IMG/VR virus record: IMGVR_UViG_3300020200_000004
Source of the DNA: a virus
Lineage: Duplodnaviria; Heunggongvirae; Uroviricota; Caudoviricetes
Direction: 5' to 3' (one strand)
Length of the DNA stretch: 47,954 bases
The position numbers were made by a program, and so were the translations under genes. The notes below the pieces were generated by a model. The model saw only the letters and a list, made by a program, of their open reading frames with translations, was not told the origin of the DNA and made no database searches. Of this stretch, positions 15,275 to 47,439 are shown piece after piece (position 1 is the stretch's first letter; each line of letters starts with the position of its first letter).

Positions 15275-15610
15275 TTGGGGGATGTTGATTTGAATGGTTA
15301 TTTAGGTACAATTGACGTTGAATCCCTTGATGGTACAGAATTTGAAGGATATGGGCCTGCTGAATGGGGTCTATATTTTATTATGATGTATGGTGGGATT
15401 GACGGGGATCATCATAAAACTTGGGTATTAGATCAAGTTGCAAGATGCTTATTAGGTACTCCCGTTAAAGTTAAATTAGCACGATGGGAGAATGGTCAAC
15501 AGGAATATCGGTGCAGCACTCAAAAGCCGCCTTCTGATAAGTATTTAAAATGGGTCGAAGATATATGTGAAGGCGGCGAATATAGTTATGATGAAGGCAT
15601 TGCTCCTTAA
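15275..15610 (+). CDS. hypothetical protein
   Basis: Stop codon is the TAA of motif B at 15608. Confidence 0.7.
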   Translation: MGDVDLNGYLGTIDVESLDGTEFEGYGPAEWGLYFIMMYGGIDGDHHKTWVLDQVARCLLGTPVKVKLARWENGQQEYRCSTQKPPSDKYLKWVEDICEGGEYSYDEGIAP

Positions 15611-15627
15611 TTGTACCAAGAAATCAC

Positions 15628-16067
15628 ATGAAAATCAAAAATGTAATTGACAAGGCGAATGATCGTATTAACCAAATAGATGAAAAGTTAAAGGAAATGA
15701 GGGGTTACTTTCCTCCCCATGATTATGAACAGGACATATGGTGGCTAGAAGGTCAAAGGCAAGCTTTTAACGAAATCATTGGTTATCTGATTAACATTGA
15801 CGAAACGGCAAATTAATGAAAGCTGATAATAGAAATCTTGGGGTTGGTCTTACTTTGAGGCAAGTCAGGGACTATCTTAATTCTTTGGATGAGAAAACTC
15901 TAAACAAAGCTTTCACAGTTCAAGGTTTAAAAGATGGCTATGACTTTCTTAGCTATATTGGCCCTGCCGAAGAACAACTGTTAATTGGCCCGAATTGGTT
16001 TCATCATGATGTATTAGTGGAAATTGGCGAACCCATAGCTATTCTTCAAGATGAGTCTATCACATGA
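15628..16067 (+). other. Two small coupled hypothetical ORFs (15628-15816, 15816-16067)
   Basis: First follows motif B; stop/start overlap. Confidence 0.6.
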
Positions 16068-16214
16068 AATGTGAACGGTGCCAGAAAAATTATGATTTTC
16101 TGCTTGACTATTGTGCAATTTGTCTTAGAAATCTATGTAATAAATGCATGGAAGAAGGGCATTGTAATAACAAACCTGCTTTAAGTGGTATGGAAGCAGA
16201 TTATGGAGAAGAAG

Positions 16215-16769
16215 ATGAAGATACATCTGACGAAATTCGTTCAAAGACAAACTCCTGATAGTCAATATTCCCATTGGTTTTCTAATGATGACTTGCTTGA
16301 ACAAGTTAACGCCAATTTTGATAAACACAAGCCTGGATATAGGGATGGAGTTATTTTAGTCCCTATATCTCCAGAAGGTGTATGTAGTGGCGTTGTTCAG
16401 TTATATAGCGGAGACAAGTTAACTGGAGTATTTAGGGAACGTAAGGAAGGTGAAGAACCCAGAAAGTCTATTTGGGCAGCACATAGCAGTAAAGTTCCAG
16501 CTAAAAGTGCTTATGTTGTTCTTTATCGGCATGATGTATTAGTTGAGACTGGCGAAAATGAAACGGATGCTGATTGGGAGATTATTTCAGTAAATGCTAG
16601 TCCCACTGAAGATGATCCGCCTATTATGCCTGATGTATTAATTGCTAACCATTTTCAACTAAGTGGTGGAACGGCTACTAATATGACGAATGAAGAATTT
16701 GTAAAGCAGCTTAAGGAATCTGTATTTTATTGGAAGGATAAGGCTTTAGCTACTCCGATTGGAACGTAA
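16215..16769 (+). CDS. DUF3228-like protein
   Basis: VVLYRHDVL..E....DADWEIISVNA..PPIMP....NHF...GGT resembles that family (from memory). Confidence 0.45.
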   Translation: MKIHLTKFVQRQTPDSQYSHWFSNDDLLEQVNANFDKHKPGYRDGVILVPISPEGVCSGVVQLYSGDKLTGVFRERKEGEEPRKSIWAAHSSKVPAKSAYVVLYRHDVLVETGENETDADWEIISVNASPTEDDPPIMPDVLIANHFQLSGGTATNMTNEEFVKQLKESVFYWKDKALATPIGT

Positions 16770-17366
16770 AATGGATAATGATAGAAAGCTTATGCTGCTT
16801 CAGAAGGCTTTAGACCAGTTGCTTTATGATGCAGAACGAGTAAATAATAAGTTTGGTCATGACGAAAATGATATTCCTTCAGATTGGTCCGAATGGGTAG
16901 ATTTACGGCGATCAATCATGGAAGTTAGACATGCTTATAAAAGGATTTGGTAGGTATTTTTAAATAAAGGACTATAATAAAGAAGCACAAGAAAGGAATC
17001 TTAAAATGAAGGAATTAAAGCAAATTATTCTATTATCTGATCTTATTTTTGAAGAGGAAGAACAACAAGAACAATACATGCCATTTTGGGATTTGCAAAC
17101 AAAAACCAAACCCAAAGACGGCGATGAAGAAGCCGCATGAAATAGAAGTGACAACCGCCAAGACGGACGCTGCTGGTTGAAGCATTAATTAGTCCCAATG
17201 GCTGACTATCAGGAAAGACTGGTTGATATGGTGGATAAAGAAGGATTGCATGTTCCTACTCCACTCTGGGGGCATGCGTATGAAGGGGGCGTTACATATA
17301 ATTATGGCCGAAATCCCGCTATCCCTTCCACTGGCGGGATTTTTAATTGTACCAAGGAAAAAATCT

Positions 17367-17702
17367 ATGATACACAGTAAGATTAAACTACCAACGAATT
17401 GTTTTATTGGCCAATCGGATGAAACTGAAAAGTTATACAAATTAGAAAAAAACCGTTCAATCGCTATTAATGCGGCGGCAGAGGAATTAAAGAAAGTTTT
17501 AAATAAAGTGGATTATTGGCACGAAGCTATGCCCGCTGCGTTATTTGCTGTTCTTGAAAGCTATACAACTGATATTAGTGTTGCTGCCGCTATTGCTTTC
17601 CTTAACAAGTATGGATTTAAGATCGAAGGGGAAGGTAAACGCCTTGACTTTACTTACAAGGTAGAAGGCGATGAATTAGTAACTCACTGGAACGGACAAT
17701 GA
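17367..17702 (+). CDS. hypothetical protein
   Basis: Start reassigned to the ATG after motif B at 17342. Confidence 0.65.
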   Translation: MIHSKIKLPTNCFIGQSDETEKLYKLEKNRSIAINAAAEELKKVLNKVDYWHEAMPAALFAVLESYTTDISVAAAIAFLNKYGFKIEGEGKRLDFTYKVEGDELVTHWNGQ

Positions 17703-17977
17703 AAGAAAAACAAAAGAAAATATCGGTTGAATTAGTTTCTTTAGATAAAACAAGTGTAAAAGTTCCGTCAGAATACGTAGATGGGTGGGGAAGAGAAAGC
17801 CAAAGAATTACTGTTTCTGGAGAAATTGCCCAAATTGAGGTTAGAAAAGGCGATAAAGCACAATTCGGCATTAGAATTCTGGAAGATGGGTCTATTATTT
17901 TAACAAGCTATGATTCTATGTTTTCGCAAGATGTTGATCGTAATTTAAGGCTTAAAAATGAACAACCGTGGAAGTGA
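17699..17977 (+). CDS. hypothetical protein
   Basis: 92-aa coupled ORF. Confidence 0.6.
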   Translation: MKEKQKKISVELVSLDKTSVKVPSEYVDGWGRESQRITVSGEIAQIEVRKGDKAQFGIRILEDGSIILTSYDSMFSQDVDRNLRLKNEQPWK

Positions 17978-18248
17978 AATTAAAGTTGGGCAATGGGTTA
18001 AAAGAACTTTAAAATCTAAAAGCAAGCACATGGGCGATTTTACTTGAAAACCTCATTCCTTTGGGCAGGTTGCTCAAATTCGCTCTAGCATTTTGGGGAT
18101 AAAGGTTTGTGATGTTGATATATTTTGTCCGTGTATGATTCCGACAGCAGACGAAGGTGGAGTTGACAACTATATGCAACGTGTATGGGCAGAAGATGAA
18201 TGTATACGTATAAAAAAACCTAGAAAACACATTTGCCCGAAAGATTAA
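17958..18248 (+). pseudogene. Hypothetical gene with internal TGA
   Basis: Open frame broken by TGA at 18045-18047; ends at the TAA of motif B. Confidence 0.5.
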
Positions 18249-18263
18249 TTGTACCAAGCTAAA

Positions 18264-18382: not shown

Positions 18383-19306
18383 ATGGGTCTTACCGTACAT
18401 TATCGCCTTAAATCTAATCAAACTGAAGTCAAGGAAACAGTTGCCAAGATGCGTCAGTTGGCCCTTGATCTGCCATTTGAACAAGTCAGCGAAATCTTTG
18501 AATTAAGTGGTGACGAATGCAATTATGAAAATTATCGTATAGAAAATGAAGAAAACGAAATGCTGCGATGGATGCTAATTCAAGCTGAAGAAAGCGTTAC
18601 TTGTCCTTGGAATAAGAATTGCAGTCGGCGTGTTGGTCCTACTAAAGTTATTGCTTTTAGTGCATGGCCTGGAAATGGGAGTGAACCGGCTAACATCGGT
18701 CTTTGCAAATTCCCAGAAAGCATAGAATGGGAATATAAGCCAAAAGATGATAGGCATTTTTGTTCCCCTACGGTTGATGGTTGGCATAGGTTTGATTATG
18801 ATAAATGGGTTAAATTGCGGGACAAGCCTACTAAGTGGTTTACTCCTGGCTTTATTCCTGATAATTGCCATAAAACTTATAATATTTCAACTAAATTGAA
18901 GGGTTGGGAATGGTCGTCCTTCTGTAAAACTCAATATGCTAGCTCGCCAGAATGCGGTGGGGTTCCTAATTTTCTACGTTGCCATATTAGCCTTATCACT
19001 TTGCTTGAAAGGATTGAGAAACTACCTGGGGTAAAAGTTAAGATTTCTGATGAAGGTAGTTATGGTGGTCCTGAAGGCAAACATAGTCCATCAGAATTGG
19101 CTAAGGAAGTTGGTGATTGGAATGGTATGATTGCTGCTTTTGCTGGAGTATTAAAGGATTCTATGGGGGATAATTTAATTGTTTCTCCTATCCATGAATT
19201 CTCTAACTTTGAACAATTGGAATTCGCTGGAAGCAAAGCGGCTAATGTTGATAATTTCTTAAAGGCAATGAAGGAAATTGCAAAGAAAACTACGGTGGCA
19301 GAATGA
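18383..19306 (+). CDS. hypothetical protein (307 aa)
   Basis: Long ORF with AAGGA RBS; FCKTQYAS..GGVPNFLRCH segment. Confidence 0.8.
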   Translation: MGLTVHYRLKSNQTEVKETVAKMRQLALDLPFEQVSEIFELSGDECNYENYRIENEENEMLRWMLIQAEESVTCPWNKNCSRRVGPTKVIAFSAWPGNGSEPANIGLCKFPESIEWEYKPKDDRHFCSPTVDGWHRFDYDKWVKLRDKPTKWFTPGFIPDNCHKTYNISTKLKGWEWSSFCKTQYASSPECGGVPNFLRCHISLITLLERIEKLPGVKVKISDEGSYGGPEGKHSPSELAKEVGDWNGMIAAFAGVLKDSMGDNLIVSPIHEFSNFEQLEFAGSKAANVDNFLKAMKEIAKKTTVAE

Positions 19307-19599: not shown

Positions 19600-19616
19600 T
19601 TGTACCAAGCAACCTT

Positions 19617-19879: not shown

Positions 19880-19905
19880 TTGTACCAAGGAAACTAAAAA
19901 GGAGA

Positions 19906-22502: not shown

Positions 22503-23633
22503 ATGAACGAAATTGGTATTGGCCATGCAAGCACAATGACGATTGAGAAAACTACCCATAAAACCGAAGTGGTCAGGGTGGATGAACTCATTAAAGTTGC
22601 AAATTCTGACCGGCTTTCTACAGTTAAAGTTTATGATTATGCCAGTGTCGTTTTAACTAATGAATGGCAACCTGGCGATCTTGCTGCCTGGATTCAACCT
22701 GATAGCGTTGTTGACGTTACTAGGCCAGAATTCGCTTTTCTTGCTCCTAAAGCTACTGATAATAAGGTCCGCATTCGTACTACCCGTTTGCGTGGCGTTC
22801 TTTCCTATGGTTTGCTAGTTAAAGCGCCTGTTGGTTCAAAGATTGGTGATGACGTTTCTGAAGCTTTGGGCGTTGTTCATTGGGAACCTGATGAAACCCC
22901 TGGATTCTCTGTGCATGGTGGAGAAAACGCAAAATCTCCAAGTGGTGTTTTTCCTACTTATGACGTTGATGCTTATCTTAAGTTTGGCCGTTTAGTATTT
23001 GTGCCAGGTGAGCCTGTTTTTATTACAGAGAAAATCCAAGGCGCAAATGGCAAATGCGTTTTTAAAGACGGTCAACAATATTGCGGCACAAGGACTCAAT
23101 GGAAAAAGGAATTTCCGAGTAAGCCTACACAAACTTACGAAGAAATCCTTGCGCAATTTGAAAATGATGAAGCTAAGGCTAAATCTGCATGGAGAAAGAT
23201 TGAGAATTGGAAACCCAAGCGTAGTCGATGGTGGTCAGCTTTTCATAATTCTCCAGGGATTAGTGAGTTTTGCAAAGCTAATCCAGGCTATGCCCTTTAT
23301 GGAGAAGTTTATGGTCAAGTGGGTGGCTATCATTATGGTATTGAAAATGGAGAAAGTAAATTTTTCGCTTTTGACATTCTAACTCCAGATGGCCAATGGC
23401 TTGATTTCCCTAATTTTCTAGATAAAATTAATGAATTCGGTATACCTCATGTGCCGATTCTTCATCAAGCGTTTCCTTTTGATTTCGATGCAATAAGTGA
23501 AATGGCTAATGGACATAGCTTAGTCCCAAATGCCGAGAACATCAGGGAAGGTGTTGTAGTTGGCACAGTGAAGGAACGTTGGGATGAAAGACTTGGCCGA
23601 GTTAAACTTAAAGTAATTAACCCGGATTATTGA
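22503..23633 (+). CDS. RNA ligase, DRB0094/Rnl2-like family
   Basis: N-terminal ANSDRL..WQPGD..PDSVV module; TEKIQG (motif I), YGEVYG, FAFDI, REGVVV and KLKVINPDY. Confidence 0.88.
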   Translation: MNEIGIGHASTMTIEKTTHKTEVVRVDELIKVANSDRLSTVKVYDYASVVLTNEWQPGDLAAWIQPDSVVDVTRPEFAFLAPKATDNKVRIRTTRLRGVLSYGLLVKAPVGSKIGDDVSEALGVVHWEPDETPGFSVHGGENAKSPSGVFPTYDVDAYLKFGRLVFVPGEPVFITEKIQGANGKCVFKDGQQYCGTRTQWKKEFPSKPTQTYEEILAQFENDEAKAKSAWRKIENWKPKRSRWWSAFHNSPGISEFCKANPGYALYGEVYGQVGGYHYGIENGESKFFAFDILTPDGQWLDFPNFLDKINEFGIPHVPILHQAFPFDFDAISEMANGHSLVPNAENIREGVVVGTVKERWDERLGRVKLKVINPDY

Positions 23634-26166: not shown

Positions 26167-27294
26167 ATGTTAAAAGTTCAAGAATATTTAGCTTCCAATT
26201 CTATTGAAAAGCTAATTGAAGAATTCCATATCATCGTCACCAAGGATGATACGTCTCCGTTGATTATCCTTAACTATGATCAAATCGAATCAAGTCCTAA
26301 GAACCATCCTGTCATTAGGGAATGTCGTGGGTTAGTATTAGATTCTACGGATTATTCATTAGTAGCTCGCAGCTTTTTACGGTTTTTTAATTGGGGAGAA
26401 CAAGCTGACGAAATGCCCTTATTCAACTTCAATAAATTCTATGTAAATGAAAAAGTCGATGGAAGTTTAGTAATCGTTTTCAACTACAAAGGCCAGTGGT
26501 TTGCTAATACCAGAGGTTCATTTGGTCGCAACTTGATGCAATTTACTGATTTCACTTGGCAAGATGCTTTTTGTCAGGCATTAGGGATCAATACGCTTCA
26601 AGAACTAAAACTTGACCCTGCATATACTTATGTTTGTGAATATTGCTCGCCTTTCAATAAGATTGTTCGTCATTATTCCAAACCAGTAATGTATTTGTTG
26701 ACGATGTTCAAGGGAGAGCAAGAATTAACTCAAGATGAAGTAGATCAGGTAGGTTTCTTACGTCCTGAACGTTTTGCATTTACTAATATTGACGATATTT
26801 TAACCTTTTTGGTGGATAAATCGTCAGTTGATCCTACGTTTGAAGGAATTGTTAAGTGCGATGATGCTTTCAGGCGTTGGAAAGTGAAATCTAAGACTTA
26901 TGTTTCCCTTCACCATATGCGGGGGAACAATGGAGAAAATCTATATAATCCGAAATACTTGCTGCCGTTCATTCTGGCTGGAGAAACGGATGAAGTCACG
27001 AATTACTTTGAAGAAACTAAGGAAGTAATTGCCGATTATAAGAATCAAGTTGACATTCATTTTGCCAACATGATGAAAGTTTGGGAAGCGGCTAAAGATA
27101 TTACTGTCCAAAAGGATTTCGCTTTAGCTATTGTTGGCAAAACTCCGTTTACTGGTTTTTTGTTTGAAGCTAGAAAGAAAGGTGTTAATCCTTCTCTTTT
27201 GTGGCGTAGTGGAGAAGATGCTATCCTTAAACATTTAAAAACACCTAGCTTTGTCAAGGCAAAACTAGAGGCAATGGAGAACCAAAATGTCTAA
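26167..27294 (+). CDS. RNA ligase, T4 Rnl1-like
   Basis: IILNY..RECRGLVL, NEKVDGS (motif I), CEY, FEGIV and KVKSKTY. Confidence 0.88.
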   Translation: MLKVQEYLASNSIEKLIEEFHIIVTKDDTSPLIILNYDQIESSPKNHPVIRECRGLVLDSTDYSLVARSFLRFFNWGEQADEMPLFNFNKFYVNEKVDGSLVIVFNYKGQWFANTRGSFGRNLMQFTDFTWQDAFCQALGINTLQELKLDPAYTYVCEYCSPFNKIVRHYSKPVMYLLTMFKGEQELTQDEVDQVGFLRPERFAFTNIDDILTFLVDKSSVDPTFEGIVKCDDAFRRWKVKSKTYVSLHHMRGNNGENLYNPKYLLPFILAGETDEVTNYFEETKEVIADYKNQVDIHFANMMKVWEAAKDITVQKDFALAIVGKTPFTGFLFEARKKGVNPSLLWRSGEDAILKHLKTPSFVKAKLEAMENQNV

Positions 27295-28685: not shown

Positions 28686-28782
28686 TTGTACGCAAATACC
28701 AAAGTCCCTAATAATTTAGAAATTTAATTGTACCAAGCTCTCTTGTAACGAAATTTAACCCCTTAAACTAGGAGATTTTACT

Positions 28783-29628: not shown

Positions 29629-29638
29629 GTTTAAGGGG

Positions 29639-29673
29639 AAGCAAAGGGGATTCGTCCATCCCTTTTGCTTTTT
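29639..29673 (+). terminator. Intrinsic terminator
   Basis: AAGCAAAGGGGAT / ATCCCTTTTGCTT stem plus T-run. Confidence 0.8.
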
Positions 29674-31787: not shown

Positions 31788-31789
31788 CT

Positions 31790-32661: not shown

Positions 32662-32672
32662 TTGTACCAAAT

Positions 32673-33131: not shown

Positions 33132-33148
33132 TTGTACCAAAGAAAACT

Positions 33149-33622: not shown

Positions 33623-33638
33623 CTGTACCAAGAAAACT

Positions 33639-36144: not shown

Positions 36145-36161
36145 CTGTACCAAGTGAAATC

Positions 36162-36689
36162 ATGAAGATTAAAGCAATAACCGATGCCCTTGGATTTGAG
36201 ACAACCTTAGAACATATCCAAATTGCCCAAAAAGCATATCAGGGATGGCCGCTTGATTTGCTAAAAAATACATGCCAAGAACTTATAAATGAACTAAACC
36301 GAGTTAACCCAGATGGCGGCGCAGCTTGGAGTTTTGTACATTCTATGAAAATTGCTATTGCTCTCCGTGAAAATTATCCTTCCTTAAAATGGGTCAAGAG
36401 CAATTTGCGCAATAACCTGCAAGCTAGAGTTAAATATAAAATTCTAGATGCTTGTGTAATCGGCAGCGAAGCGAAAGGTACTGCCAAACCTGATAGCGAC
36501 CTTGATATTGCTGTTATCATTCCTCCAGTTAGGGGCAAAACCGCATTAAAGGTTTCAGAAAATTATCATGCAAAGTTTACTAATGAAAAATGGAAACCGC
36601 AATGGAATGGCCGCATTGTTGACTTCCAGTTTTTCTACCCCAATGATCCAGAATTAACTAATTACAATAAAATTAATTGTACCAAATAG
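36162..36689 (+). CDS. Pol-beta-superfamily (MNT-like) nucleotidyltransferase
   Basis: VIGSEAKGTAKPDSDLDIAV (GS..DxD) and VDF third acidic residue. Confidence 0.8.
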   Translation: MKIKAITDALGFETTLEHIQIAQKAYQGWPLDLLKNTCQELINELNRVNPDGGAAWSFVHSMKIAIALRENYPSLKWVKSNLRNNLQARVKYKILDACVIGSEAKGTAKPDSDLDIAVIIPPVRGKTALKVSENYHAKFTNEKWKPQWNGRIVDFQFFYPNDPELTNYNKINCTK

Positions 36690-36781
36690 AACTAAGGCAA
36701 AAGCGATAACGAAATAAAAACGGACCATGAATGGATTTTTATTCCAGCGTGGCCACGAAATTAATTGTACCAAGGAATAAC

Positions 36782-37350
36782 ATGAATTTTACAGAAGCAC
36801 TTAATGAATTTCGTAAGGTCGAAAGGCTCAATTCTACAGAAGGCAGCAGGGGTGTTAAGAATCTCTGCCGTATTTGTAGAGCTATCGGCTATAAGGATGA
36901 CCAATATTTCGGCCAGTTTGACTCAAAAGCAAGCTATGGCGATTTAATTGAATTCCTCCAAGATAATTCCGGCGCTGTTGATGCTATCCTTGATTGGATG
37001 TGCGAAAATGGCGAATACTGGACTGAAAATCTCATTGACGAACTCCCCGAAGAAGTTTTAGCTAAATACGAAGAAGATGAATGAATCCCTGGAAGCTATC
37101 GTTAATTGTACCAAGTGAAACTATGATCCCACTAACCAAAGAACAACTTGATGAAATTCGCCCAAAGATGATTAAAAACGGTGTTCCTGTACGATTCATG
37201 TATCAAGGACAAGCCTGTAATATCACGACTGGCGAAATGCAAAAGAAACATATTAATGTAATCTACCAATTGCATTACTGGCATTTTGACAAAGATACTA
37301 GCAAAACTATCGCCAAACTTACAAACACTATCCCTATTTTCAGTGAATAA
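36782..37350 (+). other. Two motif-B-led hypothetical ORFs (36782-37084, 37123-37350)
   Basis: ATG 7-8 nt after the motif. Confidence 0.65.
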
Positions 37351-37643
37351 AATGGACGAACAACAAGCCACTGATAAACTGGAATCACTTGTAGGCAGCG
37401 TAGATAAATGCTTCCGACTTATGCGATTGTACCGTAGTTGTTGTCAGGCTACTTCCGGCAATCGACTGTTTGAGTATAAGCCAATTTCAACGGATGACCT
37501 TTTTCGCCAACGTGCAAAACAAGACGGCTATTCCCCAGCTGCCATTAACCATTACCTAAATTATATAAGGTAAATATGAACCTTCAAGAAATGTTTGAAC
37601 TTCACCAGATACCTATTATAGTTAATTGTACCAAGGAAAACCT

Positions 37644-37948
37644 ATGATTACATTAAACCAGGCTTTTTCCGCAACGGTATCATGGGCTATGACTTCCTTA
37701 AAGATAATAACATCCTCCCTGACCCAAATAATTTACAAAATACCCATGTCCTTTTGGGCGAAATAAAAGTCAATAACCCAGAAGATGCCTTTAATAAACT
37801 CCAAGGCGAAAACTGGTCCCCATATGGTGAAGCTAGAGCCTTTATTCAAAATCTACAACTAAAACATACATCCATGTCCGTTGGCGATATCATTACAACC
37901 CCAGATGATACCCTACTCTGCGATGTCTTAGGCTTTATTAAACTTTAA
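37644..37948 (+). pseudogene. YodL-like protein, frameshifted near its start
   Basis: HTSMSVGDII signature; the motif-linked ATG at 37644 is out of frame with the body. Confidence 0.5.
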
Positions 37949-38291
37949 TTGTTCAATGGTTTCCCCCTTATTAACATCGACACTGGCGGCGGTTACTACT
38001 CAACCAACCTTCGTCCTACCATCGAAATTAACCTAAATAATGTTATGATCCACGATATGTTTGATGAAAATGATCCCAGATGGAAAGAATACGCCAATAC
38101 TTCATCTGACCGTTCCTCTATTTAACTGTACCAAAAACATTATGTATTTGATATCCCAGAATATACCTATACTGACCCCGTTGAAGCACAAACATATAAA
38201 GCTATGACGAAGAAACTGTTACCCTACAATTCGCCATAGAACGTATGAAAGTCGATATTCAATACGATTCTTAACTGTACCAAGGAATAAC

Positions 38292-39083
38292 ATGAAACTC
38301 AATAAAGTCTATGTCTGGGTTCCTACTAAGGGCTGGAAGAAAATCTATAAATCCTATTCTCGCTCCCTTGCCCAAAAATTCGCCCAATCCCTTCAACCCC
38401 TAGAAGTTAAACTAATTAGGGATGACGGCGAAACCTTCTACGGCGGACGTTTATGCGAAGTTAATTACAATGTCCCAGAAGGTATTGGTTTTGCCAAAGT
38501 AATTTAATTGTATCAAATAAAAAGTACCTAAAATCAAACTTCTAATTTAACTGTACCAAAGAATAACATGGAAATTATTAACGTCAATTTCATGCGACAT
38601 GGCGATAACAAACAAGTCTATATCTAACTTAACTGTACCAAGGAATAACATGAATTACAAATATATCAAAATCCCTGTGAAATTCCGTGGCGTCGTTAAT
38701 GTCTGCGTCCCTGATAATATTGACCATACCACACAATATACACAAGAAGTCTCTGGTTGCTGGGAAATCAATATTTAACTGTACCAAATAAAACCATGAA
38801 AGAAATCATCGTAAACGAAACCCTGGACTTTCTTGACCTGTATCAACTCGAAGGTAATATCCAAAAAACCATCGAAATGCTACAAGACCTGCAAAAGCGC
38901 TATCCAGGCGAACTATCCCTTGAACTAAAACGAAAAGACTATAACGACGATCAAGAATATGCTGTCATCACCAAACGCCCCGAAAATGAAAAAGAAAAAG
39001 CCAAAAGACTAGAACAAGAATATCAACGAAAAGCATATAGAAAAGCCGAATACGAACGACTAAAGAAAGAATTTGAACCATGA
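38292..39083 (+). other. Motif-B-led small ORFs (38292-38507, 38796-39083) and micro-cassettes
   Basis: Motifs at 38270, 38503, 38546, 38628 and 38774. Confidence 0.6.
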
Positions 39084-39489
39084 CCTCTGAACAAGTTAAC
39101 AAAATTATCGACCTGCTCAAAGAACTTGCAGCTATCAAAGATAATATCCTTTATGCCACCTATTTCGAATATCTTGAATGGTATGAAACTTACCTTAATC
39201 TTTAACTGTACCAAATAACCATGACCGAACATAAAGACGATATCCTGCAAGCTGCCGATATTCCGTATCCTCCAGGTATTATCTCCGCTCATGGCGACAA
39301 ATGCTATAGCTATGAAGATGCCTTCAAGGAAATTAATATTACTTTTAATCAAGGTGTAGTTTCCCGGCATTGATCGGAATAAGGTCGGCAATAGGTAAGC
39401 AGATAGATAGCTAAAAATGGCTGGGTTTATCCTATTGATTGGATTAAACAAAACTATAAACAATTCATTCACCTATTGCCTTAATTGTA

Positions 39490-40080
39490 CCAAGAAAAGT
39501 TATAAAAATTGAAATTAAAGGATTATTAAATGTATCTGGTGGGAGAAAATGGAGCTAAATGGATGGAAATGGGTTAAAAATGAGGCTAAAGGGTTCTAAC
39601 TTCCTTGCCATTTTGACACCTTTTAATTAAAAAAAGTTCCGCAAAAAGCGGTTTTTAATTAAATAAACCCGTTTTTTAATGGATTAAAGGCATTTTTAAC
39701 TGTACCAAATGGGATTAAATGGTTAAAAACTGGCCATATAGCCCATAAACTGCATTAAATGGCCTATAACGAAGTCTACCTATATAATTGATTAGGACTT
39801 CATTTTAGCTAATAGAATCAATTATAATTAAATCTGGACGCATTAGAGGGGTATTTAGAAGATTCTTTTAATTTCATCTTCGCCTACATCATTATTAGGT
39901 TGGCCTGGACCTTTGGCATGGTATAGGGGTTTCCAATAACCGGACTTTCGCATTTCGTCTTTTACAGTTTTTGTACATTTGCCGCAAAATTGTGGTTAAT
40001 GGGTGATAATACGGCAGATCATCGTTGACACTGGCGTTTTCCTTCTAGAAATTGGATAAAAGTTTGTATAATTGGTATGT
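39490..40080. other. Putative replication origin region
   Basis: Non-coding and AT-rich, with GGATTAAA-like repeats and inverted repeats; + strand changes from C/A-rich to G/T-rich here. Confidence 0.55.
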
Positions 40081-40252
40081 AGGGTTGGGATATTTAATTG
40101 TACCAAGGGTATATCATGAGCTCCCCGAAGATGTGGCGATGGAGTTTTGGTGAGTATTTTCAGGAAGTGATGCATTATTTGGTGATGAATCATAAGTGGG
40201 ATGATCCATATGCGTCGATAACACCTATGTTTGATCCAGAGGGACGATGGTT

Positions 40253-40428
40253 AAATAGGGTATTTGATGCCTATAATGAATGTACTGATACAAAATTGGT
40301 AGCTTTTTTGATTCATTGTGAGAGATTTGGGGAAGATGATAAATAGGGTATTTGATGCCTATAATGAATGTACTGATACAAAATTGGTAGCTTTTTTGAT
40401 TCATTGTGAGAGATTTGGGGAAGATGAT
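40253..40428 (+). repeat. 88-bp perfect tandem duplication
   Basis: 40253-40340 equals 40341-40428. Confidence 0.95.
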
Positions 40429-40898
40429 TAATTGTACCAAGTGAGTTCGTGTAAAATTAACTCAAAGGGGAATAAAATGAACATTCAGAAGGTAAATTTC
40501 TTGCGGGTTCGTCGTCCATTGTCTTTTCAGCGTCAGAATGTGGTGAATGGGGTGGATATAAGTGGAAGTTGGATGACAGTTGAGTTGGAAACACCGCTTT
40601 ATAGTGAGGAAGTGGATAAGTTTATGTGTGAGGAGTTGCCTGGGTGGGAGTTGCAGGGTTGTAGTGTGACGAATCCAGGTCCAGATTTCAGTAAGGCTGC
40701 ATAGCGCTGGGAAATTTTCTCTTTTTTTCTCAAATTTGGTAGTTTAACATAAGTTTAATTGTACCAAAGGGTTGTGACGCAGGAAAATTTCTTGTTTTTT
40801 TCCTAGGGGGTTAAAATGTTTGTGATAGCTATTGGTGATGCATTTGATGCTAACGGTGTAGAATGGCATATAGTTGAGGTTAAGACGCTACAAGGTAG

Positions 40899-40966
40899 TG
40901 AGTACGATTCTTAATTCAAAGGTGTAAAATGATGAGTACGATTCTTAATTCAAAGGTGTAAAATGA
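40899..40966 (+). repeat. 34-bp tandem duplication
   Basis: TGAGTACGATTCTTAATTCAAAGGTGTAAAATGA twice. Confidence 0.9.
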
Positions 40967-41349
40967 GAAGTATTGCTGATAAGTTGTGGTTAAAGAAAGT
41001 AGATAACTTTAAGGTACGGCAAGCCTTAATGGTAATTGGATTGGATAAGAATATACGTTGGTGGCTAAGGGAAAATGACCCAATGGCGTTAAAGCAAGTC
41101 GAAGAGGCGTTGCACGATGGATGATGAGGTTAGGAAGGAATTGAGTTTAATTTAATTGTACCAAGAGGGATTATGACATACAGACAGATAAAGCGGTATG
41201 GTGATGCGGAGTTTTTCCAGATTGATGCTTTGACGTTGGCAATGAATCCAGATGTTGAGGCGGCTGCTAGTGATGTACAACCGATCATATTGTTTACTGA
41301 GTAGATAAGTTTAGTGATGATTTTTCTGTAAAATAAATTTATTTTTTGA

Positions 41350-41377
41350 TTTACAGAAAAGAAAAATGGGATAGAAT
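41350..41377 (+). promoter_or_regulatory. sigma70-like promoter overlapping an inverted repeat
   Basis: TTTACA-16 nt-TAGAAT; TTTTCTGTAAA (41322) / TTTACAGAAAA (41350); motif B follows directly. Confidence 0.5.
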
Positions 41378-41437
41378 TTTAACTGTACCAAGTGAAAACG
41401 TAGGGTAAAACAAAACTTTTTAAAGGGAGAATGGACA

Positions 41438-42385
41438 ATGGCTCACATGGTTGAAACGATGGCATTTGTTGGACAGACGCCTTGGCATGGATTGGGGACG
41501 GAGTGTGAGGAGTCGGATCAGTTTGACATGAAGGCTTTTCAAGTCAAGTCTGGATTGGATTGGGAAGCGGAGTTGGTTCCGTTGGTTACGCAGGATAGTT
41601 TGCAGTTAGTTGACCATCGTGCGGTGCGTCGTAAGACTGATGGCAGGGTGCTCGGAATAGTGGGGGATCGTTATCGGGTTGTTCAGAATAGTGAGGCTTT
41701 TGATTGGTTTAGTCCGTTCCTTGAGGCGCAGGAAGCGTGTTTGCATACGGCGGGTGCGCTTTGTGAGGGGAGTCGGATTTGGGTTTTGGCAAAGTTGAAT
41801 AAAGACCCGATGGAGATTGCTCCGAACGATGTTGTTTCTAAGTATCTTTTGCTTAGTCATTCGCATGATGGCACGTTGGCTGTTCGTGTTGGTTTCTGTC
41901 CAATCAGGGTCTTGTGTGCGAATACAATGGCAATGGCGCATCGTGATAAGGCGAGCAAGTTGATTCGTGTTAAGCATACAAAGGATGTTCTTGTGAATAT
42001 GGAGAACATTCGGGATACGATGAATCTTGCGAATCAGGAGTTTGAGGCAACGGCGGCGCAATACCGTTTGTTGGCAAAGAAGGACATTAACCAGAAGGAT
42101 TTGGAGAAATACTTTAAGCTGGTTTTGGATGTCAAGGATGAGGAGAAGGTATCGACCCGTACTAAGAATATGATTGGTGAATTGACCAATTATTTTGAGG
42201 CGGGAAGGGGCAATACGCTGCCTGGGGTGAAGGGAACGTATTGGGCGGCTTATAATGCGGTGACTGAATGGTTGTCGCATGAGCGTGGACGTTCTCAGTC
42301 GAGTCGGCTTAATGCTTTGTGGTATGGTGTAGGGGCAACTACTAATCAGTCTGCTCTTGACTATGCTTTGAGCATGGCAGTTTGA
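41438..42385 (+). CDS. DUF932 / TIGR03299-family phage-plasmid protein
   Basis: MAHMVETMAFVGQTPWHGLG, HTAGAL..GSRIW, SHDGT, PIRVLCANT, GTYWAAYNAVTE. Confidence 0.92.
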   Translation: MAHMVETMAFVGQTPWHGLGTECEESDQFDMKAFQVKSGLDWEAELVPLVTQDSLQLVDHRAVRRKTDGRVLGIVGDRYRVVQNSEAFDWFSPFLEAQEACLHTAGALCEGSRIWVLAKLNKDPMEIAPNDVVSKYLLLSHSHDGTLAVRVGFCPIRVLCANTMAMAHRDKASKLIRVKHTKDVLVNMENIRDTMNLANQEFEATAAQYRLLAKKDINQKDLEKYFKLVLDVKDEEKVSTRTKNMIGELTNYFEAGRGNTLPGVKGTYWAAYNAVTEWLSHERGRSQSSRLNALWYGVGATTNQSALDYALSMAV

Positions 42386-42399
42386 TGTGTCTTTGTATC

Positions 42400-42430
42400 T
42401 GTAGTCATGCTATAATACGGCATGACTACA
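42400..42430 (+). promoter_or_regulatory. Start-codon-sequestering hairpin carrying an extended -10 element
   Basis: TGTAGTCATGC-TATAATACG-GCATGACTACA; TGnTATAAT; ATG at 42422 lies in the stem. Confidence 0.75.
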
Positions 42431-43072
42431 GATACTTTATTTCTTAAATGTTGGGTATGTAAAGAGACAAAATTTGCAAATGATTTCTGGAAAGATAAAA
42501 CTAAAAAATCAGGCTATCAGTCAGCTTGCAAATTTTGTCAGAAAGAACAAGCTAAACGGTTTAAGTTAAGTAATCCAGAATATTTTATAATTAAAGGAAG
42601 AGAGAAATATGCAGCGATAGAGGATAAAGAGGCATACAATAAAAAACGATATTCTGATAAAAAAGAAGAATATTTGGCGAGACGGTTTGCATATTGGAAA
42701 AGTATTCGGGGCCGATTTAAGGAATTGCTTTGTTCAGCGAAAGGCAGAGCGAATAATAAAAATATTGAATTTAATTTAACATATGAATGGATATTAGACT
42801 TATATGACAAACAAGGTTGTGTATGTTCGCTAACGGGAATAGCATTTGATTTTGACAATAAACCTAAAGTTAAAAGATCATACAATCCTTATTCTCCATC
42901 CCTTGACCGCATAGACACTTCTAAGGGATATACACAAGACAATGTAAGATTGGTATTAACTGCAATCAATATAGCGTTAAATGATTTTGGTGAAGAGACA
43001 TATAGGATAATTGCTGATTCGTACTTGAATTTTAATTGTACCAAGAAAACCAGCGAAGATTACCAAATTTGA
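42422..43072 (+). CDS. HNH-like endonuclease (probable homing endonuclease)
   Basis: N-terminal CWVC..CKFC; CSLTGI; SPSLDRIDTSKGYTQDNVRLV..IN. Confidence 0.75.
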   Translation: MTTDTLFLKCWVCKETKFANDFWKDKTKKSGYQSACKFCQKEQAKRFKLSNPEYFIIKGREKYAAIEDKEAYNKKRYSDKKEEYLARRFAYWKSIRGRFKELLCSAKGRANNKNIEFNLTYEWILDLYDKQGCVCSLTGIAFDFDNKPKVKRSYNPYSPSLDRIDTSKGYTQDNVRLVLTAINIALNDFGEETYRIIADSYLNFNCTKKTSEDYQI

Positions 43073-43367
43073 GGTTGATATGTTGTATAGCTTGATGCGT
43101 CGGAATGAGGTTTACTTGACGGATACTTACAAGAAGTGTATGGCAAGGAAGCGGTAATTGGAAGTAAGTCAGCGTAATCAGGGTGGTGCTGGATATGTGA
43201 TAGTGGAAGCGGGAGATAATGTAAAGTATCGTCGTCCGCCAGCGATGAATTTTGATCCTAGTGGGGATGCTGGCAGTAGGAAGTATTTGAAGCGTAAGGC
43301 GGCATCAAAGCGTATTAGGCAGAAGAATCCACGTTAATTGTACCAAGATGGGATATGGATTAGTTTT

Positions 43368-43441
43368 GGCCTCGAAACATTTAATTGGATGATGACCAGC
43401 CTTTTAAGCTGGAGAATTCGGCTCGATTCCGAACGGGGCTA
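43368..43441 (+). tRNA. tRNA-Lys(UUU), atypical
   Basis: Acceptor GGCCTCG/CGGGGCT; anticodon arm CCAGC-CTTTTAA-GCTGG; T-arm TTCGG-CTCGATT-CCGAA; irregular D arm; no encoded CCA. Confidence 0.75.
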
Positions 43442-43445
43442 CTTT

Positions 43446-43497
43446 GGCTAACTGGTATCTATATAGCAACGGATTAAATCCCGTATACCAGTTAGTC
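43446..43497 (+). ncRNA. Candidate three-way-junction RNA
   Basis: 13-bp stem GGCTAACTGGTAT/ATACCAGTTAGTC enclosing two small hairpins. Confidence 0.45.
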
Positions 43498-43604
43498 GTT
43501 CTTAATTGTACCAAGGGAATATCATGAAGGCTTATCCTGATCCAGATAGGTTAAACAGAGATTAATTGTACCAAGGAAGGTATAACTTTTAATTGGAGAA
43601 GCAA

Positions 43605-44066
43605 ATGGGCATGTTGGAAGCTAAGGTTGAGGCGGTGAATAAGGCCAATGAGTATGCTGCTAAGTTGCATACTCAGTTGACTGGTGTGTTTAATGATTTA
43701 GTAGGCAAGAAGGTATTGAAGGCAGATGGGATAGTGTTAGAGAAGTATAAGAAGGTAATGCCAGAGTTGCCTAATACTCCTGGCTTGCGGGTTTACGCAA
43801 GACCGGATAAGGCTCGATATAGTTTGGCCTGGAATGTGAATGTTTATGTCTTTCATGACCGTGGTAGTAGTTATCATGAGACTACTGTATATGTGGGATC
43901 ATTGAAGGATGGTGTTTTGACTGAGTTGACGCCATTTGGGGAAGGTTATAGGACGGATTATACGGCGGAAGAGGTAAGGAAGTTGCGAGAGACGTATAAG
44001 GAAGCGAAAAAGGCATCTGATGAGGCGTATAGCAAACTTTACTATTTTGGGGAGTATGATCGTTGA
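43605..44066 (+). CDS. hypothetical protein
   Basis: GGAG RBS; follows motif B at 43561. Confidence 0.75.
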   Translation: MGMLEAKVEAVNKANEYAAKLHTQLTGVFNDLVGKKVLKADGIVLEKYKKVMPELPNTPGLRVYARPDKARYSLAWNVNVYVFHDRGSSYHETTVYVGSLKDGVLTELTPFGEGYRTDYTAEEVRKLRETYKEAKKASDEAYSKLYYFGEYDR

Positions 44067-45370
44067 ATAATTTAATTAATGCTGCTAGGTGTGCGTTGGC
44101 TGATTTGGCAGGTCGATGGGAAGATGGCACGATGCAAGATTGGGAGTGTCAGACTTTCATTGATTTGTATACAAGTTTGGAAGAGGTAGGGCAAGATGTA
44201 TCTGATTACAAAGAAGATTTAGGATATATTTTGACGCATCAACAAGTTGTGGATAGTTATAGTTAATTGTACCAAGTGATGATGGGGAAGTCGATAATGG
44301 TCGCTGGCTAATCAACCATTACAAACTAACAGAGTCAGCCTTCCCTTTAACTTTAATTTTGGAGAAAGAATGATTTTGGTTCTTGAAGGTTTTAACGGTA
44401 TTGAGGGTGATCTTCGCAATGAGTTTACTGTTACTGAGAAGGCAACGGCGATGGGTATTGCGGAGTTGTGGAATGTGAAGGGATGGAAGCCTGTTCTTTA
44501 CAGTAAAACGTATGATGGCCGTTTTCATACTATTTACAATTACAAGAGTCGTCAGCGTAAGGCAGCGTAAGCAATTTGTCGGTAGGGGGCTAAGAAAGTT
44601 AGGTGTACTCTTCAGCAACCGATAAGTCCTGTAACACCAATTTTAATTGTACCAAAGCAAGTTATGAAATACTACTATGCAAAAGATTACTGTGTAGAAG
44701 TAGTTTGCCCTGATGGTCTTTACGAAGCTACATTCAATTGGAAAGATGAATTGGATAGTGGCAAGGATTTTGAGATACCTTTAATTGGTATTGGATGTAA
44801 TGAGAAGGAAGCAATAGGTGATTTAGTTATCAGGATGCATGAACAGCATTTGATAGACCAACAGGATTCTAATTATCAGGATGCATGAACAGCATTTGAT
44901 AGACCAACAGGATTCTAATTGTACCAAGGGAAGTCATGGAAAACTACAAATGGCAGGATGATGACTTCGATTACGTTGAACCTGAGTATGATTATTCTGA
45001 CATGCTTGAGGTTGGGTGTAATTGGGTTGGTGTAGAGTGTGACATTCCTGAAACTGAGATTCCTTTCTAGGGGATTGCAATGAGTGTTTATGATGATGCT
45101 TTGAAGCGGTTGAAGTCGCATGCGGAATTGGACCATGTAAATCATCCTCAGTATAAGGGACATTACGACAATCATCAGCTTGGATTGATTCTGAAGAATA
45201 GTGGACGGTTTAAGTCTGGTTCTTATTTCATGAAGCATGATTGGGTTTTGTTTAAGTATTGCAGTTTTGATAACTCTCAAGACATTTCAATGGTTAATAG
45301 GGTTGAGGTTTATTGTCCGCAAACTGGCGTCAATTGTATTTTGGGTGCTGATTACGTCAAGCCTCTTTAA
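44063..45370 (+). other. Small hypothetical ORFs (44063-44266, 44370-44570, 44664-44888, 44936-45070, 45080-45370)
   Basis: Delimited by motif B copies. Confidence 0.55.
44827..44918 (+). repeat. 46-bp tandem duplication
   Basis: 44827-44872 equals 44873-44918 and runs into motif B. Confidence 0.92.
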
Positions 45371-45584
45371 TTGTACCAAGACATTCTAAAGGATTACGAG
45401 AACAATCCAGAGGAATTGCGGGAATTGGTAGAGAATTTAGCTAAAGTTTAATTGTACGAAGGGAGAATATGAAATACAATCTTCGAGCAAAGTCGAGTAA
45501 TCCGAATGGGTCAATCACTAAAAAGCTTAGCTTAGTACAATTAAAGTACCCCCCTATACCGCCATATTGAATTTTAATTGTACT

Positions 45585-45665
45585 AAGTTGATAAGTGGCT
45601 GATAACTCGGTTAATCACGATAGGGTTTAATGGGAAGATTCGGTTAAGCCCACCACTTATCACTT
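45585..45665 (+). ncRNA. Candidate three-way-junction RNA
   Basis: GATAAGTGG/CCACTTATC closing stem with inner GGGTTTAA/TTAAGCCC and TGATAAC/GTTAATCA stems. Confidence 0.45.
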
Positions 45666-45681
45666 AAAACAAAGGAACGTC

Positions 45682-46603
45682 ATGGACCTTGTTGCTCGCA
45701 TTTCTGACCTTTGCAAGCGGGCTGATGAAATTACGGCAGAGCATTGGCAGAAGATGAATTTTACGTTTTCTCCACCCCCTATTCATCGTGCTGAGTTCAG
45801 TGAAAATTGGTGCAAGATTATCACACAAGAGGAACGCAATGGGCAATGGAAAGATAGTTATATCTATGCCTTTGTTGCTCTCAAGGATAATTTCACGAAG
45901 AATTTAGGGCAGATTATGGCGGGTGACATTCATAAGCCTGCAAGTTATAAAGCACCTGCCAAGCATCGTCGAGGAAGTGTGTTTTCATCTGATTTTAACA
46001 ATTGTCTAACTCCGCATGGCATTGTATACATGAAGTAAATTTAACTGTACCAAGGAAAGTCATGACTACTCAACAGATTTTCAAGTTGGCTGAGTTGAAT
46101 CCTTCTTGGCTGATGTGTGACAGGGCTGCGCCGCATTTTTGTGTTGCGGTGCGTGAATTTGATGGACCTTGGGTTACTTTTATCTTGACCAATTGTTTTG
46201 ATGGCATGATTACTGGATATGAAGCCATTAAAGTGCTGTTCAAGGGACATAAGGTTGACATTGTTGTTGAGTTGTTGACGCCAGAGGAAGATGGGTTTGC
46301 ATCCACTTACTTGCGGTTGCCTAGCAAATTTTAATTGTACCAAAACAGTTACCTCTAACACAAAGGGCTAACATGGTTGCTCGTATTCTTGGTTACAAAG
46401 CACGTTTTTGCAATTCTGGTTGTGCTGAATCTTTCAAGGCTGATCGTGAATGTGGTCTTAATTATGGACTACATCGTATTAATGGCGTTTTCTGTTTGCA
46501 TCGTGAAGAATGGTCATTGGCGGCTTGTGCCTGTGCTTACTGTGGTGAAGAAGTGGCTGGCAAGGTTCCCGAACAATTGAAAGAGAAGTTTTCGTTATGT
46601 TAG
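45682..46603 (+). other. Hypothetical ORFs 45682-46038, 46062-46334, 46373-46603
   Basis: Co-oriented; motif B at 46040 and 46330. Confidence 0.65.
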
Positions 46604-46701
46604 TTAAGGGTATTTCGCAAAAGGGCAAGAATCGAATCAGGGAACATGGTAATGATTGGGATATTGTTTCCGAAATGGATGAAGTTTGTTGAAGGAATGA
46701 T

Positions 46702-46784
46702 GGCCGTATGGTGGAATGGTAGACACGCTTCTCTTAAAAGGAAGTTTCCGAAAGGGAGTGCTGGTTCGACTCCAGTTGCGGCTA
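46702..46784 (+). tRNA. tRNA-Leu(UAA)
   Basis: GGCCGTA/TGCGGCT acceptor; AATGGTAGAC D loop; CTTCT-CTTAAAA-GGAAG anticodon arm; long variable arm; GCTGG-TTCGACT-CCAGT T arm. Confidence 0.93.
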
Positions 46785-46810
46785 CTAACTCTTTTTAGAA
46801 AAGGAAACCA

Positions 46811-47029
46811 ATGCTTAATACAGTAAATGTTATCGAATGGTTCAGCGATACGATACAACGCATTACTTCTTTTGCCGATGATAAGAAAGGCAATGAACAA
46901 GCGGAAAAGTTATTCACTGATTTAGCAGAAGAAAATGGATTCAGTATTGATGACGTAGATAAAGGTTTGGAGGATGGACATTTAGAAAGAGACGATTATG
47001 AATTGTTTTTAGTTCATTCTACTAATTAA
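46811..47029 (+). CDS. acidic hypothetical protein
   Basis: AAGGA RBS; followed by a terminator. Confidence 0.65.
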   Translation: MLNTVNVIEWFSDTIQRITSFADDKKGNEQAEKLFTDLAEENGFSIDDVDKGLEDGHLERDDYELFLVHSTN

Positions 47030-47032
47030 ATT

Positions 47033-47070
47033 AAAAAGACAGGCTAACAACCTGTCTTTTTTTTTGTTTT
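47033..47070 (+). terminator. Intrinsic terminator
   Basis: AAAAGACAGG / CCTGTCTTTT stem plus long T-run. Confidence 0.8.
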
Positions 47071-47125
47071 TATTCTGTAGGTATTTTAATTGTACTAAGT
47101 TAAAATATCTAACAGGAGCAAAACA

Positions 47126-47422
47126 ATGATGACTGCAATTCTGGTGCTGGCGTTCATGCAACCACAAGCCGCTGAGATTGATTTGAGGATTGATGCAAGT
47201 AAACATTCAGTCTATGCCGTCATAATGAATGGGAATGAAGTGGGACCGGGTGTTTATCGTAGCACTCCCTTTCGTGGCGAACAGACTGTAAAGATAATTT
47301 TCGTTGTCCAGCAAGGGGAGAATCTTTATATGAGGGAACTGCAATATAAAATCAAAGCTGGCGAACGAAAGACTATCATGCTTGAGATTCCAAGAGTTTA
47401 TCCTACTGTTGTGCAAATTTAA
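47126..47422 (+). CDS. putative secreted small protein
   Basis: Signal-peptide-like N-terminus; stop in motif B. Confidence 0.6.
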   Translation: MMTAILVLAFMQPQAAEIDLRIDASKHSVYAVIMNGNEVGPGVYRSTPFRGEQTVKIIFVVQQGENLYMRELQYKIKAGERKTIMLEIPRVYPTVVQI

Positions 47423-47439
47423 TTGTACCAAAGAGAGTA

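Follow-up and report, generated by a model that had tools for sequence, protein, structure and literature searches.

A stop-containing gene-boundary motif in a clade of huge phages: a probable promoter whose copies may also serve as homology for recombination

The 47,954-nt sequence of a tailed phage (Caudoviricetes; IMG/VR record IMGVR_UViG_3300020200_000004), analysed over its whole length and hereafter called the window, contains a short motif that is repeated between small genes and carries a TAA triplet in which many of the upstream genes end. This arrangement raises the question of whether the motif delimits exchangeable one-gene cassettes, similar to those of integrons but lacking attC palindromes, as an earlier reading of the sequence (the original prediction) had proposed, or whether it is a signal of gene expression. 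The best reading of the data is that the motif represents a new, non-sigma70, stop-containing variant of the mobile regulatory cassettes known in T4-type phages as promoter-early stem-loops (PeSLs). We assign a probability of about 0.55 to the explanation that it is a phage-specific promoter whose many copies also serve as passive homology for recombination. The presence of the motif with its built-in stop is confirmed as a conserved property of a clade of huge phages.

Sequence, placement and built-in stop codon of the motif

Searching the window with TAATTGTACC and allowing at most one mismatch gave 66 matches, against 4.2 ± 2.1 expected, and a tighter pattern retained 59 copies, all of them on the plus strand. 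The full conserved element comprises 14 nt, T-TAA-Y-TGTAC-CAA-R, with an information content of about 24 bits; the positions outside the search pattern are also near-invariant, with T at position -1 in 57 of the 59 copies, AA at positions 11-12 and R at position 13. The copies are found only at gene boundaries, co-oriented with the genes, and none of the 59 lies deep within an open reading frame (ORF). The array and its principal members are as follows.

14961-47794, plus strand: about 55 copies in the same orientation, spaced 150-1500 bp apart and most closely packed at 28-48 kb, between small plus-strand ORFs
245, 1483, 7329 and 11771 (a variant), plus strand: four outlying copies
15608-15621, plus strand: the first copy listed in the original prediction; its TAA (15608-15610) stops the ORF 15275-15610, and the next ATG is at 15628 (+20)
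32659-32672, plus strand: variant copy TGATTGTACCAAA; its TGA stops the ORF 32170-32661, and the ATG at 32673 opens the first of two SprT-like paralogues
33620-39710, plus strand: sub-array rich in the TAAC variant (12 of 20 copies, vs 2 of 39 elsewhere; Fisher p=7e-6)

The TAAC-rich block also contains repeated leaders of identical sequence (AAGTGAAATCATG three times and AAGGAATAACATG three times), indicating either a separate ancestry of this block or homogenisation among neighbouring copies. A minus-strand occurrence of CAATTGTACC at 15305 was rejected as a functional copy because no ATG follows downstream, and a Chi/KOPS-type polar motif was rejected because the copies are confined to gene boundaries.

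The in-frame use of the motif triplet as a stop codon, listed in the original prediction for 17 ORFs ending in TAA and for one ending in the TGA of the variant copy, proved correct: all 18 stops are present in the mechanical ORF list, and up to seven further ORFs may end in the same way.

15610, 19599, 24254, 25926, 28685, 30962, 32020, 33131 and 33622, plus strand: ORF ends in the motif TAA
34125, 35713, 36144, 38507, 44266, 45370, 46334 and 47422, plus strand: further ORF ends in the motif TAA
32661, plus strand: ORF end in the TGA of the variant motif
18248, 19879, 31153, 38125, 38778, 43337 and 47783: additional candidate ends within the motif

The frame of the triplet is strongly biased. 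Among open frames of at least 50 codons abutting a motif copy, 25 were in the frame of the motif stop (TAA or TGA), six in frame +1 and three in frame +2, a split that departs from the expectation of one third (binomial p=1.9e-6). A second count for the window, based on ORFs of at least 40 codons covering position -25, gave 24 stops within the motif vs six read-throughs. The upstream ORFs that read through belong to 6-9 genes, continue for 4-12 codons past the motif and end 13-37 nt later.

36674-36689, plus strand: the NTP_transf_2 gene (36162-36689) crosses the motif in frame +1 and ends 13 nt beyond it
245, 7329, 34514 and 43033: other copies with read-through

The predicted succession of motif, ribosome-binding site, ORF, stop and next motif is real as an architecture, whereas the claim that these units have almost no spacer holds for about 40% of the copies; the others show spacers, long leaders or an upstream ORF that reads through. 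More than half of the motif copies lack an in-frame ORF upstream. All copies keep the TAA, including those in which it ends no gene, which indicates that it is part of the recognised motif and is not retained merely as a terminator codon.

Motif variants in related phages and the case for a promoter

The window derives from a near-clonal lake phage whose closest deposited genome is that of the 595-kb uncultured huge phage LR756511.1. Relatives were retrieved using as a marker a small protein encoded near the end of the array.

46373-46603, plus strand: 76-aa Cys-rich protein, the sole gene present in every related motif array (68-80% identity)
46287-46372, plus strand: second copy of a block shared with 34469-34530, and its leader; motif at 46332, followed by the leader TTACCTCTAACACAAAGG, near-identical to post-motif leaders in LR756511.1

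The marker has six relatives among 5.8 billion proteins, and on all of their contigs very small ORFs pointing in one direction form arrays in which a motif recurs at intervals of about 300 bp. Two further small contigs with the window-type motif were recovered by a metagenome scan. A peptide-pattern scan of IMG/VR for the marker yielded no match, and a motif scan of the same database found no contig with multiple copies, single chance matches occurring throughout. The 76-aa protein is a candidate core regulator of the array. Its cysteines follow the pattern CxxxC...CxC..CxxC, and the protein atlas offered weak TRASH/YHS-like leads, with neighbours labelled Verrucomicrobiota or Planctomycetota.

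Each related lineage has its own version of the motif.

LR756511.1: TAAAGCTGTACW
L070/L071: TTAGCTGTACW, i.e. TTAGCTGTAC(T/A)
L072/L073: CTAACCGTACCAA
L074/L075 and L077/L078: TTAACTGTACCAAG

The family consensus comprises an AT-rich, stop-containing part followed by (Y)GTAC, with a motif length of 11-14 nt. The preferred ATG lies 14-15 nt past the G of GTAC across the family, and 18 nt past it in L072. The stop triplet is kept in every lineage variant, as TAG in the L070 lineage, and the frame bias recurs in most of the related lineages, including the one with TAG.

Window: stop in motif 24, read-through 6
L070 (TAG): stop in motif 17, read-through 8
L072: stop in motif 19, read-through 6
L074: stop in motif 8, read-through 4
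L075: stop in motif 4, read-through 3
LR756511.1: stop in motif 11, read-through 11

Pooled over these lineages, 83 upstream ORFs stop in the motif vs 38 that read through, where chance would give 1:2 (p=2.6e-15; a few copies were counted twice owing to a 1.5-kb overlap between L074 and L075). The motif's own triplet is the commonest stop of the upstream ORFs in all lineages except LR756511.1, in which the two outcomes are level.

The first 30 kb of LR756511.1 contain TAAAGCTGTAC(T/A)(A/T)A in 55 plus-strand and 17 minus-strand copies, each pointing the same way as the genes. In the 595-kb genome as a whole, WAAGCTGTAC has 39 forward matches, all within 2.7-19 kb, and this confinement to a single block suggests one temporal or regulatory class of genes. 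The plus- and minus-strand arrays converge at about 19.1 kb (19100-19180), while a few minus-strand copies, at 374 and 634, point away from the plus-strand array from about 700, so that a divergent control region may lie near the start of the record. Six window genes have homologues in this block. Their order is scrambled, and each homologue has upstream of it the motif version of the phage in which it resides, as expected if the motif co-evolves with a phage-encoded reader. The arrays of different lineages have almost no genes in common, and the motif is kept in all of them.

On the downstream side, the first ATG is located 19-21 nt past the T of TAA in 33 of the 59 window copies, the stop, an SD-like (Shine-Dalgarno) AAGGA and the ATG forming a fixed arrangement within 23 nt. 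The other copies are followed by 30-60-nt leaders with their own SD, or by short or unclear ORFs. Long leaders are also found in the following stretch.

39482-41393, plus strand: gene-poor stretch with seven motif copies, each 20 to about 58 nt 5' of short ORFs with their own SD

The motif was rejected as a ribosome-binding site, since its distance to the ATG varies and the long-leader copies bear an SD of their own. Either the ATG follows at a minimal, constant distance or the interval is longer and holds a separate SD; the signal thus appears to act upstream of ribosome binding. The leader TTACCTCTAAC(A/G)CAAAGG between motif and ATG (window positions 46342-46372) is conserved with LR756511.1, where it occurs in many copies (e.g., at 14376, 17064 and 18667); it may be a shared 5' untranslated element, the CUCU of which could pair with the GGAG of the SD.

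Two copies directly follow an apparent transcription terminator.

17318-17357, plus strand: GC-rich hairpin and T-run (AAATCCCGC...GCGGGATTTT), with the motif directly after it at 17344
47033-47130, plus strand: hairpin (47033-47061) and T-run, motif at 47087 and ATG at 47128

In the second pair, a 40-nt leader carrying an SD (AGGAG) separates the motif from its ATG. Within the window, stem-loop terminators were found at few copies only (17344, 47087 and perhaps 31151). In LR756511.1, GC hairpins with T-runs upstream of the cognate motif are significant (p=0.001).

The fixed ATG distance, the terminator-motif pairs and the lineage-specific variants indicate that the primary function of the motif is most likely that of a promoter-type gene-start signal read by a phage-specific factor, with initiation probably taking place at the motif. 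No enrichment of sigma70-like sites was found in the window, and no conserved -35 element accompanies the motif, whose block is unlike TTGACA/TATAAT. LR756511.1 encodes three ORFs with sigma70 region 2 (sigma70_r2) and has no match to PF00940 (T7-type RNA polymerase) or PF00562 (beta subunit of multisubunit polymerases), a weak absence as the PF00940 control was also matchless. Given these sigma ORFs and the missing polymerase matches, a phage sigma redirecting the host polymerase is a reasonable guess for the reader of the motif.

The motif would accordingly be placed, on the evidence of its position and variants, among the gene-start signals of a phage-specific transcription system, most likely as a promoter for a phage-encoded factor (e.g., a sigma-like protein directing host RNA polymerase) that drives a series of small genes of the accessory or early type. 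The transcript would begin at GTAC or immediately behind it. The motif's 3' portion (CCAAGGAAA) could double as a weak SD, with the ATG 15 nt past the G of GTAC, and the AT-rich 5' part, which holds the stop triplet, would in a compact genome become the preferred stop of the upstream gene. About 60 near-identical direct copies of 14-20 nt could then provide passive homology for ordinary recombination, so that crossovers in or beside the motif would delete, duplicate or import whole stop-to-stop gene units. Genes stopping inside the motif would survive such moves intact, and the frame bias would be reinforced.

Compact single-block promoters are known in other viruses, such as the T4 late (TATAAATA), poxvirus late (TAAATG) and Mimivirus early (AAAATTGA) promoters. 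These elements are short and AT-rich, lie at a fixed short distance from the start codon, have a virus-encoded reader and contain a stop triplet that may overlap the end of the upstream gene. Their sequences are unrelated to the motif described here, and we know of no systematic in-frame use of the promoter stop triplet in any of them, whereas the bias here is 2:1 in favour of such use vs 1:2 expected. In the archaeal halovirus HF2, dispersed intergenic repeats of 29 and 58 bp likewise carry promoters, proven there and proposed here, although they follow another promoter logic and are not reported to contain a built-in stop (PMC8707807).

Gene turnover and competing explanations

Evidence for the gain or loss of motif-bounded units comes from the sister contigs L072 and L073, whose shared segments are 100% and 99.74% identical, with six single-nucleotide polymorphisms (6 in 2297 nt). 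L072 contains an additional 253-nt unit, consisting of a leader and a 60-aa ORF, between 18-nt direct repeats ATAAACTAACCGTACCAA that comprise the stop and the motif. It also has an additional 459-nt segment of two units between 125-nt repeats starting exactly at the motif. A third difference between the contigs begins 58 nt upstream of a motif. Exact-protein look-up of the extra L072 gene returned its own contig only and gave no support for mobility of the cassette. The expectation that a crossover within the motif moves a complete gene thus agrees with the 253-nt unit, whereas some other breakpoints are displaced from the motif by 45-58 nt in the upstream direction. These differences probably arose by recombination and not through errors of assembly, and the breakpoints fit ordinary homologous recombination through repeats of 18-125 nt.

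Within the window, possible traces of similar events include the following.

34469-34530 and 46287-46348, plus strand: shared 62-nt block comprising the last ~15 codons, the motif and the start of the leader, at the ends of two otherwise unrelated genes
32673-33131 and 33149-33622, plus strand: tandem SprT-like paralogues (51% aa identity)

Each SprT-like paralogue constitutes one motif-to-motif unit, with motifs at 32659, 33129 and 33620, and the tandem pair is what an ancient unequal crossover between two copies of the motif would be expected to leave behind. Contigs of four metagenome runs were mapped to window positions 28000-47954. One contig of run X12 joins the copies of the 62-nt block at 34469 and 46287, omitting 11.8 kb; the joint (34471>46290) passes through a 35-nt repeat beside the motif and may be a chimera. 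Two other joints, 30985>46038 and 35803>40052, are supported on one side by only 21-28 nt and probably arose from cross-matching of one motif copy to another. Excised or rearranged forms and motif-bounded joints were absent from the contigs of the four runs, and the native population varies only in the copy number of an 88-bp tandem repeat and in a small indel. The original prediction had proposed comparing cassette order across strains, and the outcome is divided: an exact motif-to-motif indel in one sister pair and the scrambled order of the six genes shared with LR756511.1 speak for turnover, whereas the window's own population is invariant. In the JGI contig L060, about 45 nt are apparently missing at 44865-44874 relative to the window (overlapping alignment pieces), some 45 nt upstream of the motif at 44916.

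As the original prediction had stated, the window contains neither an integrase nor an attC hairpin: no recombinase domain (Phage_integrase or other; Pfam) was found on the ORFs scanned across 1-47954, and no attC-like fold is present, the 45 nt upstream of the motif having a mean folding energy of -4.8 vs a background of -5.4 kcal/mol. The motif block is non-palindromic. Integron cassette arrays are resembled in the co-oriented, mostly single-gene units, in the conserved boundary where the stop can lie and in the presence or absence of units between close relatives (here in one sister pair and not in the window's own population). They differ in having an IntI-type recombinase, which was not found in the window, and imperfect-palindrome attC sites that fold as single strands. 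They also have a common Pc promoter; here the same signal stands before every unit with a constant spacing to its ATG, a pattern that speaks for separate expression signals for each gene. The integron analogy holds in part: the architecture is comparable and the evolutionary consequence probably is, while mechanism and family membership are not. The mechanistically distinct, integron-like recombination system envisaged in the original prediction was not supported, and the data reveal no new recombination mechanism.

The closest known counterparts are the PeSLs of T4-type phages, elements that begin at the stop codon of the preceding gene, include a strong early promoter with a stem-loop and end at the SD and start codon of the next (Arbiol et al., 2010; PMC2839356). 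Recombination between PeSL copies mediates indels, replacements and the formation of mini-circles, and stop-to-start regulatory cassettes driving modular shuffling have thus already been described in these phages (PMC2839356; Comeau et al., 2014, PMC4122927). Like PeSLs, the motif is part of a repeated regulatory cassette placed between the small ORFan genes of hyperplastic regions and co-oriented with them. Both span the interval between the stop codon of one gene and the SD and start codon of the next, element-bounded indels or replacements occur between close relatives (here in one sister pair), and the relatives considered here also carry T4-like genes. The differences concern the composition of the element. 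PeSLs contain a sigma70-type -35/-10 promoter and are 50-70 bp long, whereas a single 14-nt non-sigma70 motif is present here, with the stop codon as an invariant part of it. The stem-loop terminator of PeSLs is absent from most window copies and present in LR756511.1. Promoter activity and mini-circles have been demonstrated experimentally for PeSLs, while the promoter role of the present element is proposed from its sequence. The indels, the scrambled gene order and the clustering of identical leaders correspond to the behaviour described for PeSLs, and for this reason the PeSL-type reading is preferred.

Several observations weigh against a promoter that doubles as recombination homology. 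Most window copies lack an upstream terminator, the motif matches no known promoter consensus, and no cognate polymerase, sigma factor or activator was found in the 48-kb window. The evidence from indels comes from a single pair of short-read metagenomic contigs of another lineage, in which the 125-nt repeat could be an assembly collapse, and some mosaic breakpoints fall outside the motif, 45-58 nt 5' of it. Motif-bounded variation was not found in the window's own population across more than 10 lake samples. Some of these points could be accommodated by a promoter without any special role in turnover, the in-frame TAA then reflecting genome compaction: a free stop would avoid C-terminal tails and translation over the next SD and ATG, and the L072/L073 indels would be artefact or coincidence. 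The clonality and stable gene order of the window population, the restriction of the indels to one sister pair, the tendency of a 125-nt repeat to collapse in short-read assembly and the breakpoints off the motif are consistent with this explanation. It is nevertheless unlikely, given that the 253-nt indel is exact, is flanked by an 18-nt repeat and occurs between contigs with real polymorphisms; that shared genes are scrambled and the gene content of the arrays is almost disjoint while the motif is conserved; and that pure compaction predicts a frame bias weaker than 83:38.

A signal acting on RNA, either a site at which a phage or host endoribonuclease cuts polycistronic RNA into mRNAs with short leaders or an element coupling termination to reinitiation of translation, would explain why stop, SD-like AAGGA and ATG are fixed within 23 nt and why the stop triplet is conserved in every lineage variant; moreover, with no terminator before most window copies, read-through transcripts would contain the motif. 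This explanation is rather more doubtful than compaction, because more than half of the copies have no in-frame upstream ORF, many have a long leader with a separate SD, and the terminator-motif pairs require re-initiation of transcription. No conserved RNA fold was detected around the motif, nor did it match Rfam. Very improbable is a dual role in which the motif, besides being a promoter, is where a dedicated recombination function makes its crossovers, and is selected for the portability of cassettes. The least probable explanation is that the motif is the target of a site-specific recombinase encoded elsewhere in the genome, which would excise and insert single-gene circles in the manner of integrons but without attC hairpins. 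The exact one-gene indel from motif to motif, the self-contained units resulting from a stop inside the repeat, and extreme gene turnover with a conserved motif are what such a system would produce. It is opposed by the absence of a recombinase domain from the 48-kb window and of any palindrome or fold, by the fixed ATG distance and the variable-leader class, which fit expression and not recombination, by the other breakpoints outside the motif in longer homology, and by the lack of excised or rearranged forms in four native-population runs; besides, an identical pattern is already known to arise from generic homologous recombination among PeSL promoters (PMC2839356). Under the dual-role reading, this huge-phage clade would possess an integron-like gene-capture array needing no attC hairpins, in which the built-in stop (TAA, or TAG in one lineage) is retained so that each captured gene is self-contained.

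Huge phages carry hundreds of tiny genes of unknown function, the transcription and rapid turnover of which are little understood. The motif family, a stop triplet followed by YGTAC, offers a testable candidate promoter class in a clade that includes a 595-kb genome, a marker for arrays of early or accessory genes and a simple rule for correcting gene starts and ends. The PeSL-type reading would extend the concept of mobile regulatory cassettes beyond sigma70-type promoters and classical T4-like phages, and would imply that a promoter can double as a modular gene boundary.

Source phage and further features of the window

At least 14 metagenome runs from lake water contain nearly identical DNA, as do several contigs from JGI, ENA and Logan that reach 111,954 bp in length. 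Almost all ORFs of the window are on the plus strand, and its recognisable genes encode typical phage accessory functions.

22503-23633 and 26167-27294: two RNA ligases
36162-36689, plus strand: nucleotidyltransferase (NTP_transf_2)
Also in the window: ADP-ribosylglycohydrolase, ParB-like protein, DnaJ-domain protein and tRNA-Leu
Also in the window: two LAGLIDADG endonucleases, EndoVII/HNH-like nuclease and DUF932 protein

The RnlA-type ligase has hundreds of relatives at 50-59% identity on contigs of up to 685 kb, and these contigs carry T4-like genes such as gp32, UvsX, rIIB, RnlA, td and frd. On three contigs with RNA-ligase relatives (L054-L056), the ligase lies in a replication-gene neighbourhood, and the repeated motif was not found. 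A peptide-pattern scan of metagenome contigs for the RNA ligase gave no match. Relatives of the DUF932 protein (63-66% identity) occur in integrative elements of bacteria and not in related phages, and are uninformative. No close DNA relatives of the window were detected in the phage collection, where the distant search covered 28000-35900 and no near (megablast) search of 24-48 kb was made. Searching the literature for the motif strings and for LR756511 yielded nothing relevant.

A single foreign gene is inverted relative to the array. Located on the minus strand at 14319-14930, it encodes a Zeta-toxin/AAA_33-like kinase and is preceded by a canonical sigma70-type promoter, TTGACA-16-TACAAT, at 15075-15048. 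A strong bidirectional hairpin (14982-15012) lies beside it, and no motif copy serves it; it looks like a moron with host-type expression signals.

Contig depth approximately doubles from about 39.4 kb onwards in all four runs, and in each of them an identical alternative sequence is joined just before 39435. The adjoining region 39435-40090 is AT-rich, contains iteron-like repeats (TTAAATGG and similar) and shows a sharp switch of GC skew from -0.09 to +0.41. The region may represent an origin, the end of the genome or of a repeat, or a boundary between mosaic strains. Perfect tandem duplications of 88 bp (40252-40427; single copy in the ENA contig L058) and 34 bp (40899-40966) follow, neither of them motif-bounded. 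A weak tRNA-like match at 43369-43440, 34 nt 3' of the motif at 43335, scored 29.6 bits in Rfam (threshold 29) and was not called by ARAGORN. Two unusually long perfect hairpins, with stems of 17 and 18 bp, are present at 42395-42435 and 28493-28536; one is situated between the DUF932 and EndoVII-like genes and the other within the ORF 28479-28685.

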